A stretch of DNA of 64,000 nucleotides from Minisyncoccota bacterium (lineage in GTDB: Bacteria; Patescibacteriota; Minisyncoccia; JBAYJV01), in the NCBI GenBank assembly GCA_041664925.1, contig JBAYJV010000002.1:8302-72301 (forward strand), given 5' to 3'. The notes under the pieces are model-generated. The model saw only the letters and a program-made list of their open reading frames with translations. It had not been told where the DNA came from and made no database searches. Within the stretch, counting starts at the first letter, position 1; each line of letters opens with the position of its first letter. A program made the translations under genes and the position numbers. Below, piece after piece: positions 14,180-55,892 of the stretch.

Positions 14180-14192
14180 CCCTTCCTCCTTA

Positions 14193-33256: not shown

Positions 33257-33465
33257 AATGGTAAGCGGTCACTAAAGAATAGTGACCGCATTTATAATCC
33301 TTGCTTTTTCTTATAAATGTGTTAATATGGGGACCTAGAATAGTTCTTTAACTTAATGTAGTCCTACGGTCACGAATAAAGTCCTCCTTCACTAAAGTTA
33401 CGGCGGGACGTAAGAATCTTCATTTCTCGTAAACTCGAAAGAATCTTCTAACGGAGGTGGGAAAA

Positions 33466-34320: not shown

Positions 34321-34377
34321 CAGTTGCTAAGGATTGGTTAAAACTTGACAATGGGTAAAATTCTGTTAGTATAGTAA

Positions 34378-34486
34378 ACAGGAGCGCAGAGGTGATTCTC
34401 GGCGTTCTCTTGACTCCATAACGCTCCATTGGGGAGTATCTTGGTGATTCACACGGAAGGGGAAGATGGCTTTCCCTTCCTTTTTG
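34378..34486 (+). ncRNA. Candidate small RNA A
   Basis: TTGACA (34345-34350), 16-nt spacer, TAGTAT. Then ~105 nt ending in GGAAGGGGAAGATGGCTTTCCCTTCC + T5. Shares the GCG(T)TCTCTTGACTC core with sRNA B. Confidence 0.3.
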
Positions 34487-34532
34487 TTATCTGCGTTTCT
34501 GAGTTAAGCGAAGATTACGCAAATAACAATCC

Positions 34533-34650
34533 TGAGCGAAGCTTGCCCTGAACTTAGTTGAAGGGTCGAAGAATTTATCCTGAGCGAAGTTTGCCCTGAA
34601 CTTAGTTGAAGGGTCGAAGAATTTATCCTGAGCGAAGTCGAAGGATCCTC
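34533..34650. repeat. Tandem repeat, ~54-bp unit x 2.2
   Basis: AATCCTGAGCGAAGCTTGCCCTGAACTTAGTTGAAGGGTCGAAGAATTT / ATCCTGAGCGAAGTTTGCCCTGAACTTAGTTGAAGGGTCGAAGAATTT / ATCCTGAGCGAAGTCGAAGG. Confidence 0.6.
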
Positions 34651-34684
34651 TTGACATAAAATAAAATTCTGTTAGTATTATATA

Positions 34685-34792
34685 CGAGAAACAAGAAAAA
34701 TGCTGGGTTGATACCCAGCGCTCTCTTGACTCACGTTCCATAGTGGAACGTTCCAATGGTTCGGAGAGGGAAGATGGCTTCCCTCTCTTTTT
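34685..34792 (+). ncRNA. Candidate small RNA B
   Basis: TTGACA (34651-34656), 16-nt spacer, TAGTAT (34673-34678). Terminator GAGAGGGAAGATGGCTTCCCTCTC + T5 (34764-34792). Confidence 0.3.
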
Positions 34793-34912
34793 ATTGACTC
34801 TGTTTTTGAATGAAATGAAAATTACAGAGTTAACAACCCCGCACCGTATTTACTTGTCCTGAAGCGAATTTATTCTGCTGCAGGATACTGGTGCGGGGTA
34901 TTTATCCTCTTG
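34793..34912 (+). repeat. Composite element copy 2
   Basis: TTATTGACTCTGTTTTTGAATGAAATGAAAATTACAGAGTTAACAACCCCGCACCGTATTTACTTGTCCTGAAGCGAATTTATTCTGCTGCAGGATACTGGTGCGGGGT. Confidence 0.5.
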
Positions 34913-34941
34913 ACATAGAATAAAGTTTTGATAACATAAAT

Positions 34942-35047
34942 ATTGAGGAAGGTAGCTCCTCACTCCCGGTGTCCTGGCGTCCTCCTGGTGGACGTCCTGC
35001 CACCCGCCGTGCGCTGGAGAGGGAAATAGTTTCCCTCTCCTTTTTTT
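34942..35047 (+). ncRNA. Candidate small RNA C (GC-rich)
   Basis: TTGACA (34909-34914) with a weak -10 (TAACAT). GC-rich body ...GGTGTCCTGGCGTCCTCCTGGTGGACGTCCTGCCACCCGCCGTGCGCTGG. Terminator GGAGAGGGAAATAGTTTCCCTCTCC + T8 (35015-35047). Confidence 0.3.
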
Positions 35048-35156
35048 ATTGAGTGCGTTCCTGAATTTATGAAGGAATACGCAATCAATAACCCCGCACC
35101 GTATTTACTTGTCCTGAAGCGAATTTATTCTGCAGCAGGATACTGGTGCGGGGTTT
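35041..35156 (+). repeat. Composite element copy 3
   Basis: TTATTGAGTGCGTTCCTGAATTTATGAAGGAATACGCAATCAATAACCCCGCACCGTATTTACTTGTCCTGAAGCGAATTTATTCTGCAGCAGGATACTGGTGCGGGGT. Confidence 0.5.
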
Positions 35157-35204
35157 ATTATTGTACTTCGGGGTTTACGCTCTGGTGCTGGTTTTTTTTA
35201 CAAT

Positions 35205-35435
35205 TAAATATCCACCCATATCCATAAATATCATCCGCTCGGGGCGGATAAATATCCATTAATGTCTATGAATTTTAAGAATTATAATTTAAATATTGTT
35301 TCGTATTTCGGATTTTGATATTCGGATTTTATTATATATATAATATTGTAGCTCTGTTTGAGTTATCCACAGAATCTTAGAAAAGTTATCCACAGATTAT
35401 AGGCGCTTTTTCAGGTTTATCACTATCCATGCATT
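35205..35435. promoter_or_regulatory. DnaA-box cluster with adjacent AT-rich tract (oriC-like or DnaA-regulated region)
   Basis: Perfect TTATCCACA at 35363-35371 and 35386-35394 (direct, 23 bp apart). 7/9 or 6/9 matches near 35209, 35221, 35263, 35417 and 35424. AT-rich 35281-35350 (...TTTCGTATTTCGGATTTTGATATTCGGATTTTATTATATATATAATATTG). Confidence 0.35.
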
Positions 35436-35772
35436 CTTTGACAATGATCTAGTTTTTTTGGTAGGATTGGTTATAAAGAAAGAGGAGAAATATATTTCAT
35501 CGCTAACAAAAATTTGTTAGAAACAACAAAATGCATTGTTTGTCTTTGTTTGTAGGGGGGACAAACGGCTCATTTAAAAACCAACACGAGAGAGGATTGG
35601 TTTTTTTTGTTTAAAATCGTTGTGTAGATGTCCGACATCTACAGCCAAGCGAGAAGGAACAGAACCTTAAAAACGGAAAAATTATTTACACTAGTGTTGA
35701 TAATTGATTATTGAAAGTTGAAAATTAATTCGCAAGCTTAGCTAAAAATGTGTGACAACATTAAAGCTTCGC

Positions 35773-35895
35773 GTCATCCTGAGTGTTTCCTGTCATTCCG
35801 CACTTGATGCGGAATCCAGGAAATAAAACAGATTCCTGCTCGCCTTGCTGTCGAAGCAGGCCTATGCAGGAATGACAGGATTATATCAGGATGAC
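35773..35895. mobile_element. 123-bp MITE-like element with nested inverted repeats
   Basis: GTCATCCTGAGTG...CCTGTCATTCC...GGAATGACAGG...ATCAGGATGAC. Inner hairpins TTCCGCACTTGATGCGGAA and CCTGCTCGCCTTGCTGTCGAAGCAGG. Confidence 0.4.
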
Positions 35896-36110
35896 AAACA
35901 TAAAATGGTCGACCACACATCTAAGCTTATTATTGAAAGGTTAATTAACCTTTTCTCTGATTTTCAACGTATCGTAGGGCGTAGTACGAAATACGCAATA
36001 CGAAATACGATTTGAAAAATCGAGAACTTAAATTGATCTTAGTTATGAAAAAAGAATGAAGAAACCAAAGGAGGCTTCTGCATTTCAAAATCATAACTTA
36101 AATTAAAAAA

Positions 36111-37208
36111 ATGAAAAAAGTAATAGCAATTTACACTATCTTAGCAACTATTTGCTGGATAGTAAGCCCAGCATTCGTTGGCGCTATTGATACTGGACTA
36201 ACGAAGGATTCGGGCAGTGGAGCAAACCCAATTGTTAAAGCAAGTTGGGAAATGTATCCATCCGCGACACAAGGACTTAATGGTCGTGATGACTCGACAG
36301 ATCCAGCTTCACAATTTAAGGCATCAGGAATTTATGATTCAGATAAAACCATTCAAGTTTGTTCCATTGTAACAGATACTGATGGCATGACTGACATTAA
36401 TAATGTTTATGCTGATATTTATTATCCAACAGGAATATCGGGAAAACCAGTTCATCCAACTTGGGGATGTGGCAATCCTCATGGTAATGAATTTCTTTTG
36501 AGCCAGCTTCTTAAGGCTGATGGCATAACACTTGTTTGCAACGAATTGCAAAATAGTACTACTAATTCCAACTTAATTACTTGGGAAACAGGTTATAGCT
36601 ATACCGAAGTCTGTAATCCTGACGGAGAGCTAATGAAGGGCACTGCTTATGTGTATTGTGGATCAGCAGTACTTGATTACGAAGACCCATCAGGTGATTA
36701 TCGAACATTAGTCTTAGCTCAAGATAAGAGTGGTAAAAATGGAACCAACGGAACATCAGGACATCCTTTCACTTATCTTGCTACAACTGCTTACGAAGTT
36801 GATTTCAACAAAATCTCTTATGGTGCAGTTAAGTTGGGTACTACCAAAACCATCAATGGTAATTTAGCTTGGGATAGCGTTGGAACCAATAACGCTACTG
36901 TAAGAAATGTAGGAAATACACGATTAGCCATGACGGTACAACAGAACGATATGGGTCTTGGTATGACTGGCTCAGACTATAATGTGTCTTATGGTGCAAG
37001 ATTAGGCAATGATGCCGCATTTGCTCCATACGCTCCAAATGCTGCAGCGAAACAATTATTAGCTGAATTGGATCTTTCATCATCGAATGAAATGGATTTC
37101 ACAATTAATGTGAGTAAATTCCCAGTTACTGGATCAGACACATTCACTGGTACGATGACTCTCGGTGCTGTTTATGTAGATCATCTACTTTCACCTTGCG
37201 AAAACTGA
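36111..37208 (+). CDS. Secreted protein (signal peptide; Thr/Gly/Asn-rich), unknown function
   Basis: N-terminal MKKVIAIYTILATICWIVSPAFVGA signal. First gene of the surface locus. Confidence 0.55.
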   Translation: MKKVIAIYTILATICWIVSPAFVGAIDTGLTKDSGSGANPIVKASWEMYPSATQGLNGRDDSTDPASQFKASGIYDSDKTIQVCSIVTDTDGMTDINNVYADIYYPTGISGKPVHPTWGCGNPHGNEFLLSQLLKADGITLVCNELQNSTTNSNLITWETGYSYTEVCNPDGELMKGTAYVYCGSAVLDYEDPSGDYRTLVLAQDKSGKNGTNGTSGHPFTYLATTAYEVDFNKISYGAVKLGTTKTINGNLAWDSVGTNNATVRNVGNTRLAMTVQQNDMGLGMTGSDYNVSYGARLGNDAAFAPYAPNAAAKQLLAELDLSSSNEMDFTINVSKFPVTGSDTFTGTMTLGAVYVDHLLSPCEN

Positions 37209-37445
37209 ACAGATAATGATATAGGCGGGGGATTTCCAGCGCCTTGATAGGCACGGAAAAATTCCTTCGTGAAGGGGGAGGCTCTCACTGTCTCAATGAG
37301 ACATGAGCGCCTTCTCCGGAGAGGCTTGTGGCTGACCGTAGCCGTTAACCGCGAATCCTCCTTCGTTTCGGTTTAACCGGGACTACGGACGGACGCAGTC
37401 GTTAATCGTGAATCGTCGGCGACAAACTTCTCTGAACATATAATC
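37205..37445 (+). promoter_or_regulatory. GC-rich (~52%) structured intergenic leader between two AT-rich secreted-protein genes; candidate cis-regulatory RNA
   Basis: Multiple stems: TGTCTCAATGAGACA; GCCTTCTCCGGAGAGGC; CCGTAGCCGTTAACCG...CGGTTTAACCGGGACTACGG. Confidence 0.25.
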
Positions 37446-37501
37446 AATATTTAGGAAGTGCGGACTTCCAAAGGAAGACCGACTTCCACTTTAATAAAAC
37501 T

Positions 37502-38455
37502 ATGAAAAAGATTTATTTAGCCATTACATTACTATTAGCTTCAATTTTTGTCTTGCCTCAATTTGCCGGTGCAATTGGACAAGTAACTCAACCAATTGTC
37601 TTAAAGGATGTTTTAAGGGGACAGACAGTCCAAGCAGATTTAATATTGCTTAATTCGGACACAAAAGTTATTACCTATGAATTATCAGCCGAAGGAGCAA
37701 TTGCTAAATGGGCGAAGTTTTACAAGAAAGATGACTCAATTAATCCAATTACGACAATTCAAGTTCCAGCTACAAGCACAATAGGTTGTGTTATAAAATT
37801 AACTATTCCTCAAGATACGCCCAACGGTGAATATAAAGGACAAGCAATGATTACAACCATAGAAACAGAAGGCGAAACAGCAGGAGAATCAAACGCCTCT
37901 ATTAGATTGAGGATTGGAAGAGATATTTCCATTACTATTACAGACCAAGAAATTCTTAAATTCACAGCATTAGTAACCCCCATGAAGTATGTAATTGCAA
38001 GCAACGAATTACTAAAAACGAGAATTATTTACAGCAACCAGGGCAATATTTTAATTAAACCAACGGTTGATTTTAAAATTTTGAAAGATAATCAGGTTAT
38101 TTTTAACGCGATTTATCCTTATCCAGAAGGAGATGAAGGAGTTATTCCTTTTACCCAAAAAATCATCCCTCTAATTGAATGGCCTACTAGTGGACACGAA
38201 AATGGTATGTATCAAGCACAGATTAAAACACTATTAAATGGCGTAGTACAAGGTGAGTATAAATTTGCATTTGAAGTTGGTCGTGATCTCTCTTGGTATT
38301 TGGCAGCGCTTGCTTCAATCGGTCCAGGAAAAGTTGGTTTGATTTTGATTGCGATTGGAATTGTGCTGATTGGGATATTTGCGGTAAGGACATTCGTCTT
38401 TAAAAAAAAAGATTGGGAACTAGCCGCAGGGTTTTTTAGAAACCTATTCTCGTAA
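37502..38455 (+). CDS. Secreted protein with C-terminal TM anchor
   Basis: Signal peptide MKKIYLAITLLLASIFVLPQFAGA. C-terminal LILIAIGIVLIGIFAV followed by a basic tail. Confidence 0.55.
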   Translation: MKKIYLAITLLLASIFVLPQFAGAIGQVTQPIVLKDVLRGQTVQADLILLNSDTKVITYELSAEGAIAKWAKFYKKDDSINPITTIQVPATSTIGCVIKLTIPQDTPNGEYKGQAMITTIETEGETAGESNASIRLRIGRDISITITDQEILKFTALVTPMKYVIASNELLKTRIIYSNQGNILIKPTVDFKILKDNQVIFNAIYPYPEGDEGVIPFTQKIIPLIEWPTSGHENGMYQAQIKTLLNGVVQGEYKFAFEVGRDLSWYLAALASIGPGKVGLILIAIGIVLIGIFAVRTFVFKKKDWELAAGFFRNLFS

Positions 38456-38675
38456 GAGTAAGTTTAAAACTCCTGCCTACCGGCAGGCAGGCAAAAGTCA
38501 AAAGTTAAAGCCACAGTTCAAAAATCAAAACTTTAGTAGCTCATAAGTTTTAAGTTATGGTTTTGCACTTTAAGCTTTGCGCTTTGAATTAAATACAATG
38601 AAATTAAGATTTAAACATTGTTTCGAGTTTCGGATTTAGAAATTCGAATTTAAGCAAGAGATTTTTAAAAGTATA

Positions 38676-41600
38676 ATGATTAAAAAACGATACAACAAAA
38701 TATTATTAAGCAGCTTAACGATCTTAATGCTCGTTTTGCAGACTTGTAGTTTTGGAACAACGAATGTTTTGAATACTTTTAAGGTGGAAAAATCTCTTGC
38801 CAATGATATGTGTTCTGTTGACACGGATACGATTTTAATTATGGACAGGTCTGGTAGTATGGCGGATGGAGCAGCTCAAAGCAAATGCGAATGGTGGAGA
38901 ATGGAATGGGTAGTTAATACTTTTCAATGGGTTTTTCATACGGATTACAATGTAACACAAGAATGGTGTAGTGCAAAAAATCTTCCAAATCCAAGAAATT
39001 CAGTATTTTATCCTGCAGTTAAAAGTAAGATTCAGAATGCCAAAGATGCAGCGGATACATTTTTGGATAATTTTAAATCAAATGATCAAAGCGCCTTGGT
39101 GTCTTACGCGACCACTGCAACTCTTGACAAAACTCTTTCAAATAATCATGCCTCCACACTTACGGCCGTCAACGCTTTAACGCCTTCAGGCGCAACAAAT
39201 ATCGGCGATGCCATCAAATTAGGCATCCAGGAATTATCGTCTGTGAGAGCCCGAGCGCAGGCGACAAAAGCGATGGTGCTTTTAACGGATGGCTTGGCAA
39301 ACAAACCCAACGGCGATGGACAAAATGAAAATCCCTTGGATGTCGCTTATGCTGAATCTCAGGCAACAATCGCTGCTGGTCTTGGTTATAAAATCTTTAC
39401 CGTCGGATTGGGTGACGATGGACAAATTGACCAAACAATGTTACAAAATATTGCGACGATTACGGGTGCGACTTATCACCATGTGCCCAATGGCAGTGAT
39501 TTATCGCCAATTTATGATGAAATAGCTTATCAAGTTTGTCAATACGGTTCAATCTCGGGTTGCAAATACGAAGACAAAAATAATAACAGCGCTCTTGACA
39601 ATGGCGAAGAAGGATTGTCTGGCTGGGAAATGGTTTTATCCACCGGCACCTCGACGACTTTATATCAAGACACCGATCAAAACGGTTGTTATCAATTCGC
39701 TGGACTGACCGATGGCAGCTATGCTATCTTCGAAGGTCCTAATTTGGACAAAGGCGACTTCACGCTTACCAGTCCGAGCGTCAACCTCTACGACAATTTA
39801 ATTATTTCAAATCATAACAATATCGCTGATATTGACTTTTTGAATTATTTACCTTCTTGCGGAAACAGCATTACTGATAGTAGCGAACAATGCGATGATG
39901 GTAATTTAATTGATGGCGACGGCTGTTCAGTGACTTGTACGACCGAACAAATTGATTGCGATCAAATCGGTTCAACAGAAATTTCCCGCGAATGCTCTTC
40001 TGACGGCGAAGCTAGCGTTACTTATGCTTGGAATAACGATCAATGCGGTCAAAACTACACTCAAGATGAAACAGATTCTTTGTGCGCTTGTCAAGCGTCA
40101 GATACCGGAGTACAAGGCGAGTGCGTTTCTAATGGCGAGAGACAGCATTACTATACATACAATTACGAATACTGCGGCGCGGATTACGAAGAACCTCAAG
40201 CCGATGCAACTTGCAATTGCGTTGCTTCAGAATCAGGTAGAGAATGTGTCGGCGATAATTCCGCAGAAGTTACCTATTCATACAATTACGATTTTTGTGA
40301 AGCGGATTATACCGAGACTAAAGAAGATTTATCTTGCGGGTCTGAATATCAATGCGGCGATTGGCAAGACGAAGAATGTGTTGATAATGCCTTGAGACAG
40401 CAAACCCGAACTTGCGAGGATCAATATGGAACTTCTTATCCAGAATCGCGATCAGTCAGTGATGATACTTGCGGCTGCCAATCTTCAGAAACAGATCGAA
40501 CTTGCGCAGGCGATGGTTACGCCGATGTCAGCTTCACTTACAATTTTGGATATTGCGGAACGGATTATCAGTCCCAAGAAACTGATAGCTCTTGCGGCTG
40601 TCAGTCATCAGACACTAATCAAGAAGGTGAATGTGTGGGAGATGGCTTGAGGCAACATTATTTTACATACAATTACGGTTACTGCGGCTCAGATTTTGAA
40701 AATCCCCAATCCGATCCGACTTGCGCTTGTGTCGCCTCTGAATTATCAAGAGAATGTAAAAATTCTTCTGAAGCGGACGTAACCTATTCTTATAATTTTG
40801 AATATTGCGGAGCAAATTATACTCAAACCGAAGAAGATTTATCCTGCAATTCGGATTATGAATGTAGCGCTTGGGAAGATGGCGATTGTTCAGGTGATGG
40901 AACAAGAGAACAATCAAGAACTTGCGAAGATCAATACGGAAGCTCTTATCCAGATTCGCGATCAACCAATGATGCTGCTTGCGGATGTGTTGAGACGGAA
41001 GTTTCAGGATCTTGCACGGACACAACTTACAGAGAATTTACTTTCACTTACAATTTTTCATACTGTACTCAAAAACCAGCTGAACAAAGAGATGACTCAA
41101 GCTGTGGCGGTGGAGGCGGCGAGACCTGTGAATATTCTACTTGGCAAGACGGTGAATGTTATGCCGATGGAATGAGACAACAAACGAGAACTCAAACAAA
41201 CACTCTTGACGGTTGCACCGATTTAACACAGAATATTTCAGACACTTCTTGTGATTGTGTTGAGACGGAAGTGCAAGGATCTTGCACAGACACAACTCAC
41301 AGAGAATTTACTTTCACTTATAATTTTTCATATTGCACCCAAAAACCAGCTGAACAAAGAGTTGACTCAAGTTGCGGCGGTGGTGGGGGAGGCGGTGATA
41401 GTCTCGGTTCTATTTCTGGTTGTAAATATTTAGATGCAAATTATAATTATAATATTTTAGACGATACCGTGACACTTTCCGGTTGGGACATATTATTATC
41501 GGGTTCGGCTAGCACAACCACGGCGACTGATGTTAATGGTTGTTATATTTTCAGAGATTTATCGGCAGGAACTTATCAAGTAAAGGAAGGTGTTAATTTT

Positions 41601-42881
41601 AGCAAGATGCCGTTTATCCAAACTTATCCGACAAGCACGCCGACATATAATTTTACTCTTGGAGAAAGCGAGGATAAATTAAATATAAACTTTGGCAATT
41701 ATTTGCCCGTCTGCGGAAATGGAGTTTTGGATAATAATTATAATGAAAAATGCGATGACGGCAATTTAACCGATGGCGATGGCTGTTCAAAAACTTGCCA
41801 AGTAACTTATCAATGTAATGACGGTGTTGATAATGATGACAACGGCAAGATTGATTATCCCGAGGATTCAGGGTGTTCAAGCTCAACTGATAATACTGAA
41901 AAAACCGAATCTTCAGGTGGCGGTGGCGGCGGATCGGTGATTCTTCCACCTGTGGCAGAACTTAATATATTTAATGAAGGCGAAAGCGTCGGCGGCGATA
42001 TTGCCCATTTCATATGGGAAACCAATCTTAATTCCAACAGCACAATTATTTATTCAGCTGAGGACGAAGGCCATGTTTTAAATAAAAATAATCCAGGGCT
42101 TTACGGCTATGCCCATTCCTATAAAAATCCCAGCGATGACTTAGGTGTGATTTTGCACAGTGTAGATATTCCATGGCTTAGAGTTTGCACAACTTATTAT
42201 TATAGAGCAGTTTCAATGACTGGATCCGTCGGCACAGCTTTTGGCAACGAAAGATCATTTAAGACTCTTTGCCCAGCGACGATTGTTGAGCCGATACCTT
42301 CCGGGGTGGGTGGTCCGACAGGGGAGTTGGGCGAAGTTAAAGTCGTAACTCCTGTAGTAGAACAAACTGAACCGGAAGTTACCCATTCGACAAGCTCAGG
42401 GCAAGCAACTCCAGAAGAAATTGCTCAAACAAATGGCGGATTTTTGGCAAGTCTCGCGAATCTTCTTAATGGTTTTGGCGGAACGTGTTTTGCTGGTTTT
42501 CCTTGGTGGCTGATCTTCGTCTTCGCTCTCTATCCTGCTTTTAAAATTTACGAAGCTTACAGACAGAAAAATAAAAGACATTCGCTTTTCTCTTGGGTTG
42601 CCTTATTTATTGTCCATATCGCATTGGCGCTTGCTTTCTACTTTGCGAATGTGTTGATTATTTTTATCTGGGTTTTCCTTGCGCTTGGATTTGCCAACTT
42701 TTTCACTAACTATTTTGTATCATTTAGAAAAGAAGAAGATAAAAATATATTTCTTGTTGAACTTCTGACGATTTTAATTTTAGAAATTCTTACTCTAATT
42801 CTTAGTTGTCTTTATCTCTGGCTGGTCTTATTTATTCTTTTGATCTGTTTGGCGATTACCCTTTCATTTAAGAAAAAATAA
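38676..42881 (+). CDS. Giant surface protein (1401 aa). Domain order: signal peptide, vWA (MIDAS) domain, SdrD-B/Cna-B-like domains, ~10 Cys-rich repeats, two Myxococcus-type Cys-rich (DUF4215-like) repeats, poly-Gly linkers, C-terminal polytopic membrane anchor.
   Basis: vWA: ILIMDRSGSMAD ... TNIGDAIKLG ... MVLLTDGLAN. DUF4215-like: CGNSITDSSEQCDDGNLIDGDGCSVTC and CGNGVLDNNYNEKCDDGNLTDGDGCSKTC. SdrD-B-like: ISGCKYEDKNNNSALDNGEEGLSGWEMVL...DQNGCYQF. Repeated ...C..D...R...TYNY.YCG.DY....D..C modules. C-terminal ~150 aa form multiple TM helices. Confidence 0.75.
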   Translation: MIKKRYNKILLSSLTILMLVLQTCSFGTTNVLNTFKVEKSLANDMCSVDTDTILIMDRSGSMADGAAQSKCEWWRMEWVVNTFQWVFHTDYNVTQEWCSAKNLPNPRNSVFYPAVKSKIQNAKDAADTFLDNFKSNDQSALVSYATTATLDKTLSNNHASTLTAVNALTPSGATNIGDAIKLGIQELSSVRARAQATKAMVLLTDGLANKPNGDGQNENPLDVAYAESQATIAAGLGYKIFTVGLGDDGQIDQTMLQNIATITGATYHHVPNGSDLSPIYDEIAYQVCQYGSISGCKYEDKNNNSALDNGEEGLSGWEMVLSTGTSTTLYQDTDQNGCYQFAGLTDGSYAIFEGPNLDKGDFTLTSPSVNLYDNLIISNHNNIADIDFLNYLPSCGNSITDSSEQCDDGNLIDGDGCSVTCTTEQIDCDQIGSTEISRECSSDGEASVTYAWNNDQCGQNYTQDETDSLCACQASDTGVQGECVSNGERQHYYTYNYEYCGADYEEPQADATCNCVASESGRECVGDNSAEVTYSYNYDFCEADYTETKEDLSCGSEYQCGDWQDEECVDNALRQQTRTCEDQYGTSYPESRSVSDDTCGCQSSETDRTCAGDGYADVSFTYNFGYCGTDYQSQETDSSCGCQSSDTNQEGECVGDGLRQHYFTYNYGYCGSDFENPQSDPTCACVASELSRECKNSSEADVTYSYNFEYCGANYTQTEEDLSCNSDYECSAWEDGDCSGDGTREQSRTCEDQYGSSYPDSRSTNDAACGCVETEVSGSCTDTTYREFTFTYNFSYCTQKPAEQRDDSSCGGGGGETCEYSTWQDGECYADGMRQQTRTQTNTLDGCTDLTQNISDTSCDCVETEVQGSCTDTTHREFTFTYNFSYCTQKPAEQRVDSSCGGGGGGGDSLGSISGCKYLDANYNYNILDDTVTLSGWDILLSGSASTTTATDVNGCYIFRDLSAGTYQVKEGVNFSKMPFIQTYPTSTPTYNFTLGESEDKLNINFGNYLPVCGNGVLDNNYNEKCDDGNLTDGDGCSKTCQVTYQCNDGVDNDDNGKIDYPEDSGCSSSTDNTEKTESSGGGGGGSVILPPVAELNIFNEGESVGGDIAHFIWETNLNSNSTIIYSAEDEGHVLNKNNPGLYGYAHSYKNPSDDLGVILHSVDIPWLRVCTTYYYRAVSMTGSVGTAFGNERSFKTLCPATIVEPIPSGVGGPTGELGEVKVVTPVVEQTEPEVTHSTSSGQATPEEIAQTNGGFLASLANLLNGFGGTCFAGFPWWLIFVFALYPAFKIYEAYRQKNKRHSLFSWVALFIVHIALALAFYFANVLIIFIWVFLALGFANFFTNYFVSFRKEEDKNIFLVELLTILILEILTLILSCLYLWLVLFILLICLAITLSFKKK

Positions 42882-42969
42882 ATTTTTCCCACTTCAATTC
42901 ACTAATGTACGAGATTCGACCTCGTACATTTTATATCTTGACAAAAAGAACGGTTTTGATAATATAGAT

Positions 42970-43072
42970 AGTGGCAATCCTGCAACCCACGGATGCTGGA
43001 TGCCAGGGGTAATTGGTACCCCACCGTACCCTCCCGCGCAGAGAGGGAGGACGAGCCTCCCTCTCCCTTTTC
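42970..43072 (+). ncRNA. Candidate small RNA E (same promoter/terminator architecture; shares TCCTGC(A/C)ACCC(A/G)C..GCTGG motif with sRNA C)
   Basis: TTGACA (42938-42943), 16-nt spacer, TAATAT. Terminator GAGAGGGAGGACGAGCCTCCCTCTCC + T-run (43041-43071). The overlapping 72-aa minus ORF is judged spurious. Confidence 0.3.
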
Positions 43073-43152
43073 TTCGATTCATAGGAATTGAAAAAAACAA
43101 ATCCCGCATCACACGATACGGGGTTTTTTGATTGCGTTTCTGAATTATTATT

Positions 43153-43482
43153 TCAGCTTCCTCTTACTTTCCACAAAAAATAATTAAAATAATTCTGCCA
43201 CTGTTTGTTGTTTGAATGATACTCGTTGTCGTAAATAAAATAATCCACTAATGCTTCGCGTGTTTTTGTAATCTCTCTAAGTCGCGATTGATTTTTTACA
43301 TCGCTAATCGTTAAATCTATAAGTTCAAGTCCTCTGAAAAATGCTTGGCGAGAGTAATCAGGATTATTTTTATTTTTCCATGAAATTGTTCTTTCGATTT
43401 CACTTCCGACATTTGCCATCTGTTCAAAAAAAGAAAGCTTAACCCATCCACCATCCGCCAACTGTTTATGTTGAAAAGCCAT
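43153..43482 (-). CDS. Hypothetical protein (109 aa; helical, possibly HEPN-like)
   Basis: ORF only. Lies next to the TA pair. Confidence 0.4.
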   Translation of the reverse strand: MAFQHKQLADGGWVKLSFFEQMANVGSEIERTISWKNKNNPDYSRQAFFRGLELIDLTISDVKNQSRLREITKTREALVDYFIYDNEYHSNNKQWQNYFNYFLWKVRGS

Positions 43483-43683
43483 AATTTGATTAAATTATTG
43501 ACCGATTTGTGTCTTCCTTCTAATCCTATCAAAAATTCAGTCGATTGACAACTAACAAAACAAAACCCACAACGATACAATTTTACATTAAACAACATTA
43601 AAACACGACAGTTGTGGATAAATAATATTGATTAATTAATACAGTTGTATTACAATAGAATTATATCAACTAACTACAATTAT

Positions 43684-43917
43684 ATGCGCCAAGTAATAAG
43701 TTTATCTTTTGCAGAAAATGTCGCCAAAGAGGTTAAAACCCTTTCTAGAAAAAGAGGATATTTTTCTGTTAGTAAATATATTCAAGGATTAGTAGAGATG
43801 GACAAGGAAATCATTTCTGAACAGGAGTTGTTAAGTTCAATTAAACAGTCAAGACAGGAATACAAAAAGGGCAAAGCGATTACTGCTAAATCAATGGCAG
43901 AACTATATGATAATTAA
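43684..43917 (+). CDS. Putative antitoxin of RelE/ParE-type TA pair
   Basis: Small ORF (MRQVISLSF...) overlapping the toxin gene start by 11 nt. Start chosen at the internal ATG. Confidence 0.45.
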   Translation: MRQVISLSFAENVAKEVKTLSRKRGYFSVSKYIQGLVEMDKEIISEQELLSSIKQSRQEYKKGKAITAKSMAELYDN

Positions 43918-44179
43918 GGCTATTTATTATTCTAAAAAATTTCAGCAAGAATTAAAGAAACTGCCAAAAGAAATTGTTAATTTAGCAATTAAAAAAGAAT
44001 CGTTGTTCAGAAAGAACCCACTACACACTTCTTTGCGCCTTCACGAATTACATGTAAAGTTTCAAGGCATTTGGTCTATATCTATAACGGGAAATTATAG
44101 AATCATCTTTGAGAGGATGACTAATGGCGATATCCTGTTCATCTCTATCGGCAAGCACGATATTTATAGATATTTATAA
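43907..44179 (+). CDS. RelE/ParE-family type II toxin
   Basis: 90 aa with ...LHELHVKFQGIWSISITGNYRIIFERMTNGDILFISIGKHDIY, the characteristic RelE/ParE C-terminal pattern. Confidence 0.7.
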   Translation: MIIKAIYYSKKFQQELKKLPKEIVNLAIKKESLFRKNPLHTSLRLHELHVKFQGIWSISITGNYRIIFERMTNGDILFISIGKHDIYRYL

Positions 44180-44249
44180 AAAAAGTTTACTTGCGCAAAC
44201 TTCTTTTGACGGAAGAATGATTTACGGAGGTCCGTCCTCCGTAAATTTT

Positions 44250-45143
44250 TTATTCCCTTTCCCTTCTTTTTTGCCAAAGAAGAATTAAAAGAAGAATAAG
44301 AAGTAAGATAAAGAAAAGGAGAATAAGAAAAAACCTTGTTTCGTTACTATTGTCGACGAGATCCTTCATTTCATTCAGGATGACAGGTGGCAAGATAGAA
44401 AATAAATTGGACTGAAGGGGAAGGGGAGACAAGGAATGCAGAGGAGATATGGGATATATAGGAATAGTGGAAGATGAGGACGAGGGATAATACAAAGGAG
44501 ACAGAGAAGATGTGGGAGATAAGGGGGATACAGGAATAATACTTTCTGTCTGTATTATATTTTCCGGTTGAGAACTTGTAGAGTTCTCATTTTTTGTATT
44601 ATTTTCTGGTGAATTCATTGGCGAATCTTCTTTATTTGGCGAACTATTATAAATTCCTGGCAAAACAACAGATCCGAAAGTTTCATGACTGTCGCCAATC
44701 TGAGTGACATTAATTTTAAAATCAGCCCCAAGAGATCCTGCTTGAAATTCATTTCCAGAGTTTTGGAGAAAAACTATTTCAAGGGAAATGTTTTTACTTG
44801 AGTTTCGCGGAATATTGGCAACAAAAATACCTTCTTTAAATAATTCTGAAAGCGAAATCGGTTTGTCTTTATCAAAAGACAAGAGAAGAACTGAAGCGAG
44901 ATTCTTTTTTTCAGAAATTTTATTGGCTCCCAAATAGACACTAATATCAAAATTTTCGTGGTTATCAATGGTAATTTCTTTAGTTTCGCTTTTCCCCGGG
45001 ATTAAATTATTTAGATTAAAAGGCAGGCTGCCAAAATCAATAAAAATCTGCTTATCGCCAAATTGTTCTGTTTTGGCAAAAAACAAAGACGGAATTAAGA
45101 GGAAAGCAATGATTAAATATTTTAGCAATTTAATTTTGGTCAT
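44250..45143 (-). CDS. Secreted protein with Pro/Ser-rich linker and C-terminal TM anchor; part of TasA/SipW locus
   Basis: N-terminal signal. C-terminal ILLFFILLLILLLILLWQKRRERE. The linker is SPLSPTSSLSPLYYPSSSSS... Confidence 0.5.
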   Translation of the reverse strand: MTKIKLLKYLIIAFLLIPSLFFAKTEQFGDKQIFIDFGSLPFNLNNLIPGKSETKEITIDNHENFDISVYLGANKISEKKNLASVLLLSFDKDKPISLSELFKEGIFVANIPRNSSKNISLEIVFLQNSGNEFQAGSLGADFKINVTQIGDSHETFGSVVLPGIYNSSPNKEDSPMNSPENNTKNENSTSSQPENIIQTESIIPVSPLSPTSSLSPLYYPSSSSSTIPIYPISPLHSLSPLPLQSNLFSILPPVILNEMKDLVDNSNETRFFLILLFFILLLILLLILLWQKRRERE

Positions 45144-46182
45144 TATTTAATTTATTAACGCTTCCCATCGTGGGGGCGGGATCGTACCAAGCGCCAGTTC
45201 CATCAGGAATTCGGGCATACGATTTATTTTCTGGCACCGCAAGAACAGTATTACATGTCGAGGAAGTTGTCAGGGAATTGGTTTGTTGAGGAGTGGGGGA
45301 TAGTTCACAATTTGTGCCGTGGTAACTATAAGAATCAATTAAGGTATTGGCATTATCGTATAAATAAACAATGTCGGCAGGAGTGCTGCTGCCAGAAGTA
45401 TTGTTTAAAACAGAATGATTTAAATAAACAACCAACCAATCTTTGGCGCCAACAATTGTTGTAGCGGGCAAAGTATTGGTTGCGGTGATAGCGATAGCAT
45501 GATCGGTTTCGTCGTTGATGTGCCAGCCAGCAACATCAATTGGCTGGTCACTAGTATTATAAAGCTCAACCCATTCCCCCTCGGGCATAACGAGAGAGTC
45601 GGATCCGATGGGATTGGGCAGGAATTCATTAAGAAAAACGCCGGATCTCCAAGTTCCCGAAGAAAGCGTTAACTCTAGCTCTCTATTTTTATAGAAGCCC
45701 TGAGAATTGTTTTCTAAGTTTAATTGCCAAGCCTCAAACAATAATTTAAAGCTGCAAGATTTTTGAAAAAGGGATTCGTCTTGGGAAGCAAGAGAAAATT
45801 CAAAAGACCAGTCTTTAAAAGTTTGAGTACTGGAAGCTTGATAGGAAAAACCAGAAAGCAAATCTTGTTCTTTAAAGTCGCCACCAAGATTCGCCTTGAT
45901 ATTTAAATAATCACAAAGTTCTCCTGATAAATCAGAAGTTTTTATTTGATATTGAAAATCTAAACTGCCCTCTTTTTCAACAACTAAATCAAGGTGTCCT
46001 GATTGCGAGGGCGTGATGCTGGATAGCGAAGAAGTGGCGATTTGGTCTAAAGAAAAATCCAAGGTTCCCACCTCAAAACCATTCGCTTGCTTTGTTTCTT
46101 CATCGGTAAAAAAGGCAAAAGAAAAGTTAGTAAAAAATATAACAACTATCAATATTAAAAGGTAACTGAAATATTTAGACAT
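45130..46182 (-). CDS. SipW-cognate-signal protein with Lamin-Tail Domain (LTD)
   Basis: N-terminal ...FAFFTDEETKQANGFEVGTLDFSL (SipW-cognate class signal). LTD signature LNEFLPNPIGSDSLVMPEGEWVELYNTSDQPIDVAGWHI. Confidence 0.6.
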   Translation of the reverse strand: MSKYFSYLLILIVVIFFTNFSFAFFTDEETKQANGFEVGTLDFSLDQIATSSLSSITPSQSGHLDLVVEKEGSLDFQYQIKTSDLSGELCDYLNIKANLGGDFKEQDLLSGFSYQASSTQTFKDWSFEFSLASQDESLFQKSCSFKLLFEAWQLNLENNSQGFYKNRELELTLSSGTWRSGVFLNEFLPNPIGSDSLVMPEGEWVELYNTSDQPIDVAGWHINDETDHAIAITATNTLPATTIVGAKDWLVVYLNHSVLNNTSGSSTPADIVYLYDNANTLIDSYSYHGTNCELSPTPQQTNSLTTSSTCNTVLAVPENKSYARIPDGTGAWYDPAPTMGSVNKLNNDQN

Positions 46183-46194
46183 ACTTATATCATC

Positions 46195-46383
46195 GTCATC
46201 CTAAGAACATAGTCATCTTGAGGTCGCCTAAGGCGACCGAAGAGTCTCGGGATTCTTCACGGAGTTTATCCTGAGAAACTCGAAGGGTTCAGAATGACAG
46301 ACGCACACGGGATTCTTCGTGGAATTTATAGTGAGCTTGCCTGTGGTGAGCTTATCGAATCCATCGAACTACTCAGAATGACA
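46195..46383. mobile_element. MITE-like elements (one complete at 46195-46298, one truncated to 46383) between LTD-protein and SipW genes
   Basis: GTCATCCTAAG...TTCAGAATGAC, then ...CTCAGAATGACAC. Interiors share GATTCTTCACGGAGTTTATCCTGAGAAACTCGAAGG with the 47571 copy. Confidence 0.4.
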
Positions 46384-46839
46384 CTTTATTTTTCTAACCT
46401 CACTAAAAATTACTACCAAGCAGGGAATTGACAAGAGAATAATAATTCCAATCGGAGTTCTCGTCAGATTAAAAATATAACCGAGATAAGGGACTGCCAA
46501 AACAACTTTTCCCAAGATTTGATCTTGCCTGATTTTTTTTAAATCAGAACTAGGATTAGCATCGCCTCTGGTGGTATATAAATTTTCATCTTTGTTAAAG
46601 ATGCGATGAGTGATTTTTCTTTGGTGATTTTCCTTTTCAAAAAATGTTATAACATCTCCTATTTTGTATTCTGCCATTCTCAAAATAACAATAATACCTC
46701 CTTGTCTGATAGCGGGCGCCATTGATCCAGAAGTGACCATAAGTATTTTATGAGGAGCGCTGGGTAAAAGCGAAGTCAATAAAAACAAAACCAGCGCTCC
46801 CAAAAACCAATAAAAATACTTTGTCGTTAGTCTTTTCAA
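46369..46839 (-). CDS. sipW: Signal peptidase I, SipW/archaeal-ER type (S26B)
   Basis: TSGSMAPAI (catalytic Ser), RIFNKDENLYTTRGDANPSSD (TKGDNNxxxD signature), VPYLGYI. Confidence 0.75.
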   Translation of the reverse strand: MKRLTTKYFYWFLGALVLFLLTSLLPSAPHKILMVTSGSMAPAIRQGGIIVILRMAEYKIGDVITFFEKENHQRKITHRIFNKDENLYTTRGDANPSSDLKKIRQDQILGKVVLAVPYLGYIFNLTRTPIGIIILLSIPCLVVIFSEVRKIKCHSE

Positions 46840-46851
46840 GATATTTCTAGA

Positions 46852-47472
46852 TTACTTCTGTTTGAAGTCAAAAGTAATCGAGAAACCAGTACTATCGCTT
46901 TGAAAAATATTGCCGCCCAAATGAGCAGGATCAGCTTCCCATTTAACTTTAATATCGGCTGTTTGATCGGCAGAAAGACTGACTTCAGATGACGGTTGAG
47001 AAATTACCCCATTAAGCAAAATTAAACTTTGACTAGAAGAAACAAAGTAAGTTTCTGTTCCATCCAAAACACCATTGCCATCTGTGTCTATCCAAACAGT
47101 CAATTTCAAATAATCATCAAGTTCGCCTTCGCCAGTACCGGGATTTCCGCAAGTTGTGTCTATAAGCGCTTCAGGGGAATTGCAATTGTTTTCTTTATCG
47201 TCAGTTTTATTAATTGTGGCAGCAATAATATCTCCCGTAATTGTCCCAGCGTTTTTTAATCTAATAACGCCGGAATCAAAGTCACCGGGCTTGATATTAG
47301 TAACTTGAATAGGCAAGGTTGTGTTTGGTCCATCTGTTGTCAAATCCAAAGTACCGGCAGCGAAAACATTTGTCGGAGAAGTTTCGGTATCGGTAAAGTA
47401 AGCGCCAGTTGCGCCTAAAACGACGCCAACAATAATAGCGATGAAAGAAAAGGCATTAATAATTTTTTTCAT
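46852..47472 (-). CDS. TasA/camelysin (M73)-like fiber protein with SipW-cognate signal peptide
   Basis: ...GATGAYFTDTETSPTNVFAAGTLDL closely matches the TasA/CalY N-terminus (AAFNDIKSKDATFASGTLDL). Size is 206 aa. Confidence 0.7.
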   Translation of the reverse strand: MKKIINAFSFIAIIVGVVLGATGAYFTDTETSPTNVFAAGTLDLTTDGPNTTLPIQVTNIKPGDFDSGVIRLKNAGTITGDIIAATINKTDDKENNCNSPEALIDTTCGNPGTGEGELDDYLKLTVWIDTDGNGVLDGTETYFVSSSQSLILLNGVISQPSSEVSLSADQTADIKVKWEADPAHLGGNIFQSDSTGFSITFDFKQK

Positions 47473-47648: not shown

Positions 47649-48246
47649 ATACTTTTGTTTAATATTTTATGACAGGAAAACAGATCACTCGACCTTTAAA
47701 ACAAAAAAAGCTCACAAAAAAATGAGAGCTGTTAAACTAATCTATTTCCCCTCCTATCATGATGAAATGTTTCGATGAAATACTTAAGAGAATATTTTAT
47801 CAAATCCTGAAGGTATTTTTCAATGTGGATAACTCATTATTATGTTTCCGAGGTAACGAGGAATTACATAATAATGACCCCGGCACGCCGGGGTTATTGA
47901 TTGCGTAGTTTCTCATTTTATTCGAAAACGCGACACCCTCCTTCACTAAAGTTACGGACGGGTTATTGACTCTGTAATCTTTCGCATAGACTTAAGAATA
48001 GAGTCAATAAAATGAGGGCCTGTTTTTCTTACAGACCCTCGCAATGCATTAGCCCACTATAGAGGTTATTGTGACTCCACTCTTATGATTATACTAAAAA
48101 ATTAATCGTTTGCAATATCTTGGAATTATCCGCCTTAACTAAAGTTACGGCGAGATTATTAACTGTGTAATCTTCGCCTTGCTCAGAAACGCAGTCAATA
48201 AAAAGAGAGCCCGCGCACTTTGCACGGGCTCCTACTTTGAAACTCT

Positions 48247-49287
48247 CTACTGAACGGTTACTTCGTACCGTCCAGTCACCTCCTCTCCGTTAAGAGAGGC
48301 GGTAACCGTCCATGTTCCGGAGTGGAAGAACTTGACCTTGATGTATTGGCCAAAATCTCCCCACACCTTCACGATCTCGAAGTCATCGCCGAGAACCGGC
48401 GACGAATCGCCGCAGCACCAAGCGAAGTCCCAAGAGATCTTCGTCTTGTTGCAGCCACAGCCACAATCTGGCTCCGATGGGCAAGGGACGATACCTTGAA
48501 TTCCGACGCTCTGTTCATCGAAGACATTTCTGCACTGGTCGCATTCATCGAAACACGGCCAGTCGTTGAAGAGAACTGCGATCTCGAATTCATCGTATGC
48601 CGAGACGCATCCTCTCTCCGGTTCCAGACGGTCCAATACGATCGAATCGCATGGGTCATCGCACGGATCGTCGGGACAAGGCGGCGTTGGGTCGCAGCAC
48701 TCCTCAACCTTTAGGGTTGCGGTCTTATATGCGACCGTTCCCGCATCGTCCCGTACCGTCAGGTAAATGGTCTTCGTTCCGGCCGATCCGAATGTGAAAG
48801 TCGTGGACGAGTCGGAACTCACGTGGCCATCACTTGAGGACCATTCATAGGTAATCGGGCGACTGTGTTCGATAACCGCCGATACCCGCGTCGGGATGTT
48901 CTTGCAGACAGGATTGAGGTCGATGTTGATAGACGTAATCCTGACGAACGGCTTCTCTCCGACGGTGATGGTAATCGAGTCGCTTGCCGTCTCGGTGCCA
49001 CACATCCCGCTGTTGGTCACCGTAACCGTTGCAGTGTAGGTGCCAACGTTTTGGTAGACGTGGATTGGGTTCTCTTCGGAACTTGTTCCACCGTCTCCGA
49101 ATGACCATGCGCGCGTCTTATCTGCACAAGTAGTTACGGCACTGAACGCGACCGTCAAGGGCGCGTAGCCGCTGGTTCGATCAGCCGAGACTTCGACTGT
49201 GGGCGGAACTGTCATACATCCGCCCAGACCGAGCGCCAGTACTACGACCAGCGCGCCAAGCAGTACAAACATCCGTCCTCGCTTCAT
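48247..49287 (-). CDS. Lipoprotein with PKD domains and Cys-rich C-terminal domain (GC-rich island)
   Basis: Lipobox LALGLGGC. PKD: GYAPLTVAFSA...WSFGDGGTSSEENPIHVY..GTYTATVTVTN. C-terminal EECCDPTPPCPDDPCDDPCD...CGCGCN...WCCGD. Confidence 0.7.
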   Translation of the reverse strand: MKRGRMFVLLGALVVVLALGLGGCMTVPPTVEVSADRTSGYAPLTVAFSAVTTCADKTRAWSFGDGGTSSEENPIHVYQNVGTYTATVTVTNSGMCGTETASDSITITVGEKPFVRITSINIDLNPVCKNIPTRVSAVIEHSRPITYEWSSSDGHVSSDSSTTFTFGSAGTKTIYLTVRDDAGTVAYKTATLKVEECCDPTPPCPDDPCDDPCDSIVLDRLEPERGCVSAYDEFEIAVLFNDWPCFDECDQCRNVFDEQSVGIQGIVPCPSEPDCGCGCNKTKISWDFAWCCGDSSPVLGDDFEIVKVWGDFGQYIKVKFFHSGTWTVTASLNGEEVTGRYEVTVQ

Positions 49288-49561
49288 TCTGAACCTCCTT
49301 AGGTTCGTATTTGTTTTTTTTGTTTGTGTACATAGGGAATCTTAACTTCCCTTTCTACTATCCATTATAGCATATTAGAACACTAAAGTCAAGGATTTTG
49401 GTGAAATATTTATATTTGTGAACTTAATATGTAAAAAGAAACAATAAATAATATAACTTAAAATTCAAAACTCAAAGCGCAAAACAACAATTTAAAACTT
49501 AAAACTATTTAATTTTTATTAACTATGCAAACAAAAACCCCGTATTGTTTGATACGGGGAA

Positions 49562-50488: not shown

Positions 50489-50556
50489 CTCCTTTAGAGT
50501 TTCTTGACGAACGAAGTGAGTACTAGAAAATCTTAAGTCCCGCCGTAGTTCCGGTA
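50489..50556 (-). promoter_or_regulatory. Conserved leader instance f (serves 49562-50488)
   Basis: CTTAAGATTTTCTAGTACTCACTTCGTTCGTCAAGAAACTCTAAAGGAGGTGTTCTCA-ATG, preceded by a GTTCCGGTTTACCGGAAC hairpin. Confidence 0.45.
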
Positions 50557-54592: not shown

Positions 54593-54604
54593 TTTGTACC
54601 TCCT

Positions 54605-55870: not shown

Positions 55871-55892
55871 AGTTCTGCTCACCTCCTCAGAC

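Follow-up and report, generated by a model that had tools for sequence, protein, structure and literature searches.

The window analyzed here, a 64,000-nucleotide (nt) stretch from a Minisyncoccota bacterium (positions 8,302 to 72,301 of contig JBAYJV010000002.1, GenBank assembly GCA_041664925.1), carries between positions 36111 and 47472 a cell-surface locus that consists of two convergent operons, split by a ParE/YafQ toxin-antitoxin pair and a conserved open reading frame (ORF) of 109 amino acids (aa). The minus-strand operon (operon B) is best read, given its TasA family matches and the alignment of a donor-strand segment, as encoding a non-pilin donor-strand fiber, as the original prediction had proposed. 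In the reading of the whole locus that we favor, albeit with some reserve, operon B is a self-contained, cell-tethered TasA-type fiber cassette, and the plus-strand operon (operon A) is a separate triad whose products probably cooperate with it in adhesion. All eight ORFs listed in the original prediction were recovered by an ORF check of the window, with unchanged coordinates and strands. The same sequence also turns up in several metagenomes, on contigs as long as 360 kb, and the NCBI deposit is labeled “Candidatus Paceibacterota.” The features of operon B are as follows (arrows mark predicted cleavage sites).

47472 to 44250, minus strand: operon B, encoding the 206-aa, 156-aa, 350-aa, and 297-aa proteins, read in that order
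46852..47472, minus strand: predicted TasA-like major fiber subunit, 206 aa (Peptidase_M73 and TIGR04088 matches)
47401-47472, minus strand: signal peptide of the 206-aa protein, aa 1-24 (predicted SipW cleavage, A24↓Y25)
47362-47400, minus strand: putative donor-strand region of the 206-aa protein, aa 25-37 (alignment to TasA)
46369..46839, minus strand: SipW-like endoplasmic reticulum (ER)/archaeal-type signal peptidase I, 156 aa (TIGR02228, SEC11A alignment)
45130..46182, minus strand: predicted minor subunit, 350 aa, with a lamin-tail domain (LTD), a TasA-like N-domain, and an SFA↓FFTDEET motif; no membrane anchor
45649-46113, minus strand: TasA-like N-domain of the 350-aa protein, aa 24-178 (hhalign of the N-domain family)
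45136-45648, minus strand: lamin-tail domain of the 350-aa protein, aa 179-349 (Pfam LTD)
44250..45143, minus strand: TasA-fold protein, 297 aa, membrane anchored and lacking a donor strand (hhalign, hydropathy)
44679-45074, minus strand: TasA-like domain of the 297-aa protein, aa 24-155 (hhalign)
44352-44678, minus strand: Pro/Ser-rich stalk of the 297-aa protein, about 110 residues, aa 156-264 (sequence)
44253-44351, minus strand: transmembrane (TM) helix and KRRERE tail of the 297-aa protein, aa 265-297 (hydropathy)

The 206-aa protein, already named “TasA family protein” in NCBI, scores 56.2 bits against the Peptidase_M73/TasA model (PF12389; cutoff, 22.5) and 29.3 bits against TIGR04088, the SipW-cognate signal (cutoff, 19), which bears out its earlier description as a TasA/camelysin-like protein with a SipW-cognate motif. 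A profile of 19 relatives aligns over its full length (residues 5 to 204) with Bacillus subtilis TasA (5OF1/8AUR; E = 8.6e-5) and gives a weak match to archaeal AbpX (E = 0.11). The donor strand of B. subtilis TasA comprises residues 28 to 38, and F29, I32, and F39 are buried in the next subunits (PMC9674648); it aligns with Y25 to F37 of the 206-aa protein, which has no membrane anchor by hydropathy. As a side observation, N35, Q56, and K73 of this protein lie numerically near the isopeptide triad N35/E56/K74 of BsaA, a comparison of position counts only, the sequences being unaligned; relatives at 63% identity have E56, and the window protein and its closest relatives have Q56.

The 156-aa protein had been called a SipW/ER-type signal peptidase, and this assignment held up: its score against the archaeal/ER-type signal peptidase I model TIGR02228 is 101.5 bits (cutoff, 51.85), and it aligns with human SEC11A (E = 3.4e-5) with the catalytic residues in register. 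The predicted catalytic residues are the Ser of SGSM (S39), the His of TH78R, and an Asp of GD93ANPSSD99 (D93/D99), which makes the enzyme one of the Ser/His(/Asp) type instead of Ser/Lys, and hydropathy places a TM helix at both its N and C termini. On NF046067, the equivalog model of Bacillus SipW, it scores 89.4 bits, below the cutoff of 190; by these scores we regard it as a SipW-like enzyme and not as an equivalog of Bacillus SipW.

That this peptidase cleaves its TIGR04088-type neighbors is predicted from gene adjacency and motif position. The alignment of the 206-aa family is invariant at T22, A24, F26, D28, and E30. In 8AUR, mature TasA starts with A28, which aligns with residue 25 or 26 of the 206-aa protein; the predicted cut therefore falls after A24, with T at position -3, A at -1, and F at P2′. 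According to PMC10269814, this is what makes TasA a substrate of SipW rather than LepB. The AYFTDTE motif, singled out in the original prediction, thus sits where B. subtilis TasA is cut. Elsewhere, SipW-type peptidases are fused to further domains (L007, L104, L109, L110, L125, L142, and L146), and in several metagenome cassettes SipW is fused to the TasA-N/LTD protein. The L007 polypeptide (13561-14769, minus strand) runs from the peptidase through a TM segment and a SipW-type NAYFSDS motif to He_PIG/Big_9/FN3 domains, and appears to be a peptidase fused to its own substrate.

The other two genes of operon B, which overlap by 14 nt, encode proteins with TasA-like domains. The 350-aa protein, for which an LTD and a FAFFTDEET signal motif had been claimed, scores 63.4 bits on LTD (PF00932; cutoff, 34.3; Pfam match at aa 180-287) and 22.1 on Peptidase_M73, just under the cutoff of 22.5. 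Its SipW-type signal motif was found by alignment only: the family of its N-domain matches the TasA family with an hhalign probability of 97.6%, in the part that spans the signal and FFTDEET. Neither Pfam nor NCBIfam gives a match for the 297-aa protein, which also has no TIGR04088-type signal. A profile of its N-terminal 160 residues, aligned with related domains from relatives, matches the TasA family over 134 columns (hhalign probability, 96.9%; E = 1.5e-10). Thus, its description as a C-terminally anchored protein with a Pro/Ser linker stands, and a TasA fold is to be added to it. The alignment begins opposite P33 of the 206-aa protein, and the mature 297-aa chain (after FFA↓KTEQ) therefore has no equivalents of Y25 to S32. 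This protein is accordingly TasA-fold but devoid of the first 8 or so residues of the donor strand.

This division recurs well beyond the window. A scan of metagenome contigs with the TasA alignment yielded 79 loci, annotated with hidden Markov models built in this analysis; cassettes were counted in the 41 loci on contigs of at least 8 kb. The order of genes is tasA (1 to 4 copies), sipW, TasA-N plus LTD, and anchored TasA-fold, where present, and the synteny comparison called for in the original prediction thus recovers the same arrangement in most of these contigs. sipW is present in 36 of the 41 cassettes, the TasA-LTD gene follows it in 31, and the anchored TasA-fold gene comes last in 28, often with an FN3 module. 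Among nonredundant proteins, the motif A[YFWA]FxD, sought in the first 70 residues, is found in 0 of 25 members of the anchored class versus 123 of 176 other TasA-like proteins (Fisher P = 3e-12), and a C-terminal TM segment in 18 of 25 versus 4 of 176 (Fisher P = 1e-16); several of the remaining 7 of the 25 anchored-class proteins without a TM segment are cut by contig ends. This split is the strongest comparative support for a putative division of labor in which donor subunits are free and the strandless one is tethered. Two loci contain TasA-like subunits with a SipW-type N terminus and a C-terminal vWA/MIDAS domain (L121, 10677-12482; L140, 271-1710), both inside otherwise canonical tasA-sipW-LTD-anchor cassettes.

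The features of operon A are as follows.

36111 to 42881, plus strand: operon A, encoding the 365-aa protein, the 317-aa protein, and the 1401-aa vWA giant
36111..37208, plus strand: conserved secreted protein of no known family, 365 aa (no Pfam or NCBIfam match)
37502..38455, plus strand: 317-aa protein of WxLIP-like architecture, with two Ig-like domains between a signal peptide and the C-terminal TM helix with its short basic tail
38297-38407, plus strand: C-terminal TM helix of the 317-aa protein, aa 266-302 (hydropathy)
38676..42881, plus strand: membrane-anchored putative adhesin (vWA giant), 1401 aa (Pfam, NCBIfam, hydropathy)
38796-39560, plus strand: vWA/MIDAS domain of the giant, aa 41-295 (Pfam VWA, 53.9 bits)
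39561-39959, plus strand: first SdrD_B plus DUF4215 module, aa 296-428 (Pfam/NCBIfam)
39960-41420, plus strand: about 11 Cys-rich repeats, aa 429-915 (read from the sequence)
41421-41819, plus strand: second SdrD_B plus DUF4215 module, aa 916-1048 (Pfam/NCBIfam)
41952-42569, plus strand: Gly linker, FN3, and “PWW” TM segment, aa 1093-1298 (weak FN3 match, hydropathy)
after the “PWW” TM segment, to the end of the protein, plus strand: further TM helices of the giant (hydropathy)

The 365-aa protein has hundreds of full-length homologs at about 50% identity across Parcubacteria-type lineages and Patescibacteria classes (813 clusters at 50% identity in a library of 1.8 billion proteins), with more distant relatives in Thermoplasmatota, Methanomicrobiales, and Chloroflexota. 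The family has about 55 invariant residues, including Cys and His; the window protein has six conserved cysteines and a conserved N-terminal TGLTxDxxGGAxPIVKAKWE segment, and its AlphaFold2 model (pLDDT, 90.5) consists of two beta-sandwich domains. Both this protein and the 317-aa protein had been described as secreted. This stands for the former but not for the latter, which is membrane anchored by the TM helix at aa 266-302. In a set of 59 species-level genomes, 45 loci had enough flanking sequence for the gene after the 365-aa gene to be read, and in 40 of them it is the 317-aa gene; a vWA/SdrD_B protein follows the pair in 25 of 35. The 365/317/vWA triad is thus a separate unit conserved across Patescibacteria. 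Homologs of the 365-aa protein at 25 to 30% identity are encoded in Thermoplasmatota and Methanomicrobiales (L065, L066, L067, and L069); in L065 and L066 a 317-aa-like gene again comes next, with an LTD protein after it in L066. Some Paceibacteria parasitize methanogens, and the archaeal pairs may reflect interdomain transfer of the pair.

The domain architecture claimed earlier for the giant was confirmed by Pfam, NCBIfam, and hydropathy as to its vWA MIDAS (DRSGS at 57-61, the ATN threonine, and LLTDG, i.e., DxSxS...T...D), SdrD_B domains, two myxo CxxDDGN-type repeats (TIGR02232/DUF4215, 60.6 bits), and polytopic C-terminal anchor of 4 to 5 hydrophobic helices. The Cys-rich repeats are likewise present, with their number revised from about 10 to about 11, and an FN3 module (a weak Pur_ac_phosph_N-like match) was found ahead of the anchor; the whole protein contains 68 cysteines. 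Its ortholog in the closest relative (1179 aa) has the same ends and a different number of internal modules. An apparent length polymorphism of 1384 versus 1401 aa proved to be merely the gene caller's choice of start codon. By its domains, the giant is best read as a stalked, membrane-anchored, metal-dependent putative adhesin.

Several observations link the two operons. In 14 of the 59 species-level genomes, TasA-system genes adjoin the triad or stand within it, several-fold more than the few per cent expected for an ~14-kb locus in an ~1-Mb genome. Loci L021, L039, and L023 have the two gene sets interleaved on the same strand, and in L021 the 317-aa homolog overlaps sipW by 17 nt. In the closest relative of the window (84% TasA identity), the triad is followed directly, on one contig, by tasA-tasA-sipW-LTD/LamG-anchor, and this cassette is convergent with the ortholog of the window's cassette. 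The Gly-linker/FN3/PWW-TM module of the giant is homologous to the C terminus of anchored TasA-fold proteins (blastp match to the last gene of a TasA cassette in a relative, 2e-13), and the PWW/WWW-TM motif is found across lineages in both vWA giants and anchored TasA-fold proteins. In addition, vWA giants of other lineages often carry an LTD, and a few 365-aa paralogs have an anchored-type TasA domain at the N terminus. The TasA-vWA fusion subunits in L121 and L140 and the sipW-bsaA-bsaB-bsaC(vWA) operon of Clostridium perfringens also speak for a link. A search for such fusions as a common arrangement gave only 2 of 54 N-extended family representatives, most extensions being acidic, Pro/Thr-rich linkers. 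The idea that the giant acquired its FN3 anchor by a recent deletion fusion with the last gene of a lost cassette was likewise discarded: the identity is only 30%, and the orthologous giant in the relative already has that anchor. The motif itself, a conserved P-W-W (or W-W-W), marks the outer end of the C-terminal TM helix (giant aa 1271-1298, nt ~42486-42569) and is also found in L005, L007, L021, L023, L025, L039, L055, L059, and L061; it is often preceded by Cys and followed by basic residues, resembling a tripartite sorting signal, and no NCBIfam model matches it.

Other observations weigh against a cooperating pair of operons, or against parts of the assignments on which it is built. In the 41 metagenome-sampled cassettes there is not a single 365/317 gene within 10 kb, and the operons of the window are on opposite strands with the toxin-antitoxin pair between them. 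For the 350-aa protein, hhalign backs only the first ~77 columns of the N-domain as TasA-like. The 365-aa protein was considered as a divergent TasA and rejected as such, since profile-profile comparison with the TasA and anchored TasA-fold families gave a match in the signal peptide only. A Foldseek search with its model returned no specific relative, only generic matches, with CfaB-CfaB pilin fusions on top (E = 2.5e-5; TM-score, 0.28). The absence of triad genes from the neighborhood of all 41 cassettes implies that any coupling can be no more than facultative. We conclude that the TasA cassette stands on its own and that its link with the triad, though real, is a facultative one. The single dedicated system of the original prediction thus survives in part, in the 14/59 adjacency and the common LTD and FN3-PWW modules; the 0/41 count speaks against the rest. 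The two operons probably cooperate in adhesion and are not an obligate single machine.

The same count of cassettes could be taken to mean that the operons are functionally unrelated surface modules, co-sited in a region where variable cell envelope genes accumulate. TasA genes are absent from the 10 kb around many of the triad loci, genes for PKD lipoproteins and further secreted proteins are grouped on the other side, and, besides its opposite orientation and the intervening toxin-antitoxin pair, each operon has its own terminator-like hairpin. Such hairpins are found 3′ of the giant (42904-42930 and 43041-43065), of the toxin gene (44219-44247), and of the upstream PKD gene (48232-48206), and these are therefore separate transcription units. 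However, mere co-siting fits poorly with the excess of adjacent loci over chance, the same-strand interleaving with overlapping genes, and the common anchor and LTD modules together with the existing anchored-TasA/365-aa fusions. We consider it somewhat unlikely.

For the cassette as a cooperating but autonomous fiber system, a mechanism can be outlined, in which we infer polymerization, polarity, and what the LTD and anchored proteins do. The 206-aa, 350-aa, and 297-aa proteins would be exported by Sec. SipW would cut after A24 of the 206-aa protein and A23 of the 350-aa protein, leaving a free N-terminal Y/F-F-T-D-x-E-T strand, and, as B. subtilis TasA does, each subunit would use the freed strand to complete the beta-sandwich of its neighbor, so that the 206-aa protein forms a shaft. 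The LTD protein, with a putative donor strand and no anchor, would serve as a TapA-like minor initiator or distal subunit carrying a binding domain. The anchored 297-aa protein would be acceptor-only: by capturing the last free donor strand it would stop growth, and it would tether the fiber to the membrane via a wall-spanning stalk. A TasA subunit releases its own strand only once its groove is filled (Böhning et al.), and a strandless acceptor would therefore be a natural terminator. In operon A, the 317-aa TM-anchored partner probably holds the 365-aa protein at the surface, by analogy with WxLIP and WxL proteins. The giant, fixed by its own FN3-PWW polytopic anchor, would display its metal-dependent vWA domain for binding at the end of a disulfide-rich stalk. 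Extended to Patescibacteria at large, the model would be a previously undescribed, cell-tethered donor-strand fiber with an LTD initiator or distal subunit, a TasA-like shaft, and an anchored acceptor-only terminator and tether, joined in many lineages to the 365/317/vWA complex via shared FN3-PWW anchors, as an attachment organelle or an S-layer-plus-fiber envelope with which these ultra-small, host-dependent bacteria would hold partner cells. We offer this extended version tentatively, as one that is rather unlikely to be right.

The absence of an anchor from the 206-aa and 350-aa proteins would also suit a released scaffold of the biofilm or extracellular matrix, as in Bacillus, with the 297-aa product as an independent surface protein; B. 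subtilis TasA and Clostridium perfringens BsaA are indeed matrix components. This is unlikely, given that an anchored TasA-fold gene without a donor strand is conserved as the last gene of the cassette (28/41) and that the anchored class is sharply distinct from the unanchored subunits. BsaA oligomers, moreover, are reported to be cell associated, and some strains have an LPXTG BsaB-like protein.

For operon A, the 365/317 pair might constitute an S-layer, with a canopy and membrane stalk in the manner of SlaA/SlaB, through which the vWA giant and TasA fibers protrude. In favor of such a layer, the 365-aa protein is secreted, unanchored, very widespread, and highly conserved, and its gene precedes that of an Ig-domain partner with a TM anchor; the pair is also found in Thermoplasmatota and Methanomicrobiales, and the 365-aa gene is the first after a long leader with strong promoter-like boxes. 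S-layer proteins, however, are commonly larger and poorly conserved, whereas about 50% identity and some 55 invariant residues that include Cys and His point to specific interactions; with the lattice only conjectured, we hold this alternative to be quite unlikely. It is very improbable that the giant is the tip adhesin of the TasA fiber, as the original prediction had it. In other pili, vWA domains are indeed present in tip or ancillary subunits, L121 and L140 have TasA-vWA fusion subunits, and BsaC is a vWA protein in a sipW operon, but the giant has no TasA-like domain, TIGR04088 match, or SipW/donor-strand motif and is held by its own 4-to-5-helix C-terminal anchor preceded by FN3, an anchor that its ortholog in the closest relative keeps. 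There is next to no chance that the Peptidase_M73 proteins, instead of being structural subunits, act as metalloproteases of the camelysin type, as their Pfam family name would suggest, because the 206-aa sequence has a single His and no HExxH or other metal-protease motif and the solved members of the family are jellyroll fiber subunits.

The remaining features of the window flank or separate the two operons.

43153-43482, minus strand: 109-aa ORF, no family; its position between the operons is conserved
43645-43917, plus strand: putative antitoxin, the small upstream partner of the toxin (from its position)
43907-44179, plus strand: ParE/YafQ-type toxin (ParE_toxin, 25 bits; YafQ_toxin, 27 bits)

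The toxin-antitoxin pair (43645-44179) is kept at the same place in relatives and is outside the surface system. The 109-aa ORF is 94% identical, at the same interoperon position, in a relative with only 84% TasA identity. The tasA-like ORF contains, within its 3′ end and just ahead of sipW, a weak terminator-like hairpin (46913-46928, minus strand), which may be an attenuator favoring the subunit transcript over the downstream genes or, equally well, a chance match. Upstream of operon A, tandem sigma-70 paralogs (329 and 287 aa; 32267-34320), found at the same position in the closest relative (L071), are separated from the 365-aa gene by 1.8 kb without a sizeable ORF (34320-36110). This leader contains three direct repeat units of ~255 to 308 nt, each with a TTGACA-N16-TAxxAT box (34345, 34651, and 34910) and a GC hairpin plus T-run (34455, 34763, and 35016), as well as a 48-nt tandem repeat at 34529-34638; the units may be tandem small transcription units or small RNAs. 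Rfam and tRNA scans of the whole window and of the 1.8-kb leader gave nothing above threshold. On the far side of operon B, two PKD-domain proteins are encoded at 48247-49287 and 53546-54592 (minus strand), in a block (48000-56000) with a G+C content of 0.44 to 0.48 versus ~0.37 elsewhere. The first has an LGLGGC lipobox and a Cys-rich C-terminal domain. Highly expressed Ig-like and PKD signal-peptide proteins are reported from Paceibacteria co-cultures (PMC10936435). A PKD gene lies directly upstream of tasA in three related genomes; in the window, the strong hairpin at 48232-48206 stands between the two.

Some of this is already known: PF12389 homologs occur in Patescibacteria among other phyla (PMC9245690), NCBI annotates TasA, and Clostridium has a sipW/TasA/vWA operon. 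In the literature searched we found no LTD-bearing or anchored strandless paralogs as conserved cassette members, neither the shared FN3-PWW anchor nor the conserved 365/317/vWA triad, and no link of TasA/SipW to a surface structure in bacteria from the Candidate Phyla Radiation (CPR) beyond the distribution remark in PMC9245690. The cassette bears on how TasA-type fibers start, stop, and are anchored, a matter in which the anchoring role of TapA in Bacillus is debated. It offers a clean natural experiment, in which one paralog keeps the donor strand and gains a binding domain and the other swaps the strand for an anchor, and the dichotomy holds across dozens of uncultured genomes. The analysis also flags the 365/317 pair, very conserved and so far unannotated, together with its associated vWA giant as belonging to the core of surface features in Parcubacteria-type CPR bacteria. 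To our knowledge, essentially no envelope or host-attachment machinery of CPR bacteria is known beyond type IV pili; if true, the model would give a testable account of how these small-genome cells build attachment structures.

Among known systems, the tapA-sipW-tasA operon of B. subtilis (PMC9674648, PMC10151520) shares with operon B a dedicated ER-type signal peptidase beside its substrates, a TasA family jellyroll with an aromatic P2′ residue after the cleavage site and an N-terminal donor-strand segment, and an accessory protein with a TasA-like N-terminal strand, TapA there and the LTD protein here. The Patescibacteria cassette differs in its gene order (tasA-sipW-LTD-anchor), in a signal peptidase that falls below the Bacillus SipW equivalog cutoff, in a lamin-tail domain where TapA has a macroglobulin-like one, and in the third TasA-fold protein, strandless and TM anchored, for which Bacillus has no counterpart. 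The C. perfringens sipW-bsaA-bsaB-bsaC(vWA) operon (PMC11580942; Obana et al. 2020, cited therein) likewise combines SipW, two TasA-like proteins, and a vWA protein in one locus, with cell-associated oligomers and, in some strains, a wall-anchored LPXTG BsaB-like protein. BsaC, however, is a 70-kDa secreted protein encoded in the same operon as sipW, whereas the vWA protein here is a 1401-aa membrane-anchored giant from a separate, convergent operon with two extra conserved genes. Archaeal AbpA/AbpB and AbpX (PMC9245690; 9sj2) are further TasA-like donor-strand filaments outside Firmicutes, of the kind predicted here; unlike the cassette, the archaeal bundling-pili operon has no dedicated signal peptidase.

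The triad, in turn, recalls the WxL clusters of Enterococcus and Lactobacillus, which comprise a small WxL protein, WxLIP, and a large WxL adhesin (PMC10599100). Like WxLIP, the 317-aa protein has two tandem Ig-like domains and a C-terminal TM helix; it has no Pfam match to DUF916 or DUF3324 (PF06030, PF11797) at E ≤ 0.1, Pfam detects a WxL domain neither in the 365-aa protein nor in the giant, and the large adhesin here is TM anchored and not WxL anchored. Finally, the locus resembles chaperone-usher and sortase pili with vWA subunits (e.g., Mfa5; PMC7835359) in its combination of a beta-sandwich shaft with specialized adhesive or terminating subunits and in the use of acceptor-only and donor-only subunits, which would set polarity. 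The cassette has no chaperone, usher, or sortase, and the bacterium is a monoderm; and whereas the acceptor-only FimH is distal in chaperone-usher pili, the acceptor-only subunit predicted here is membrane anchored and would form the base of the fiber.

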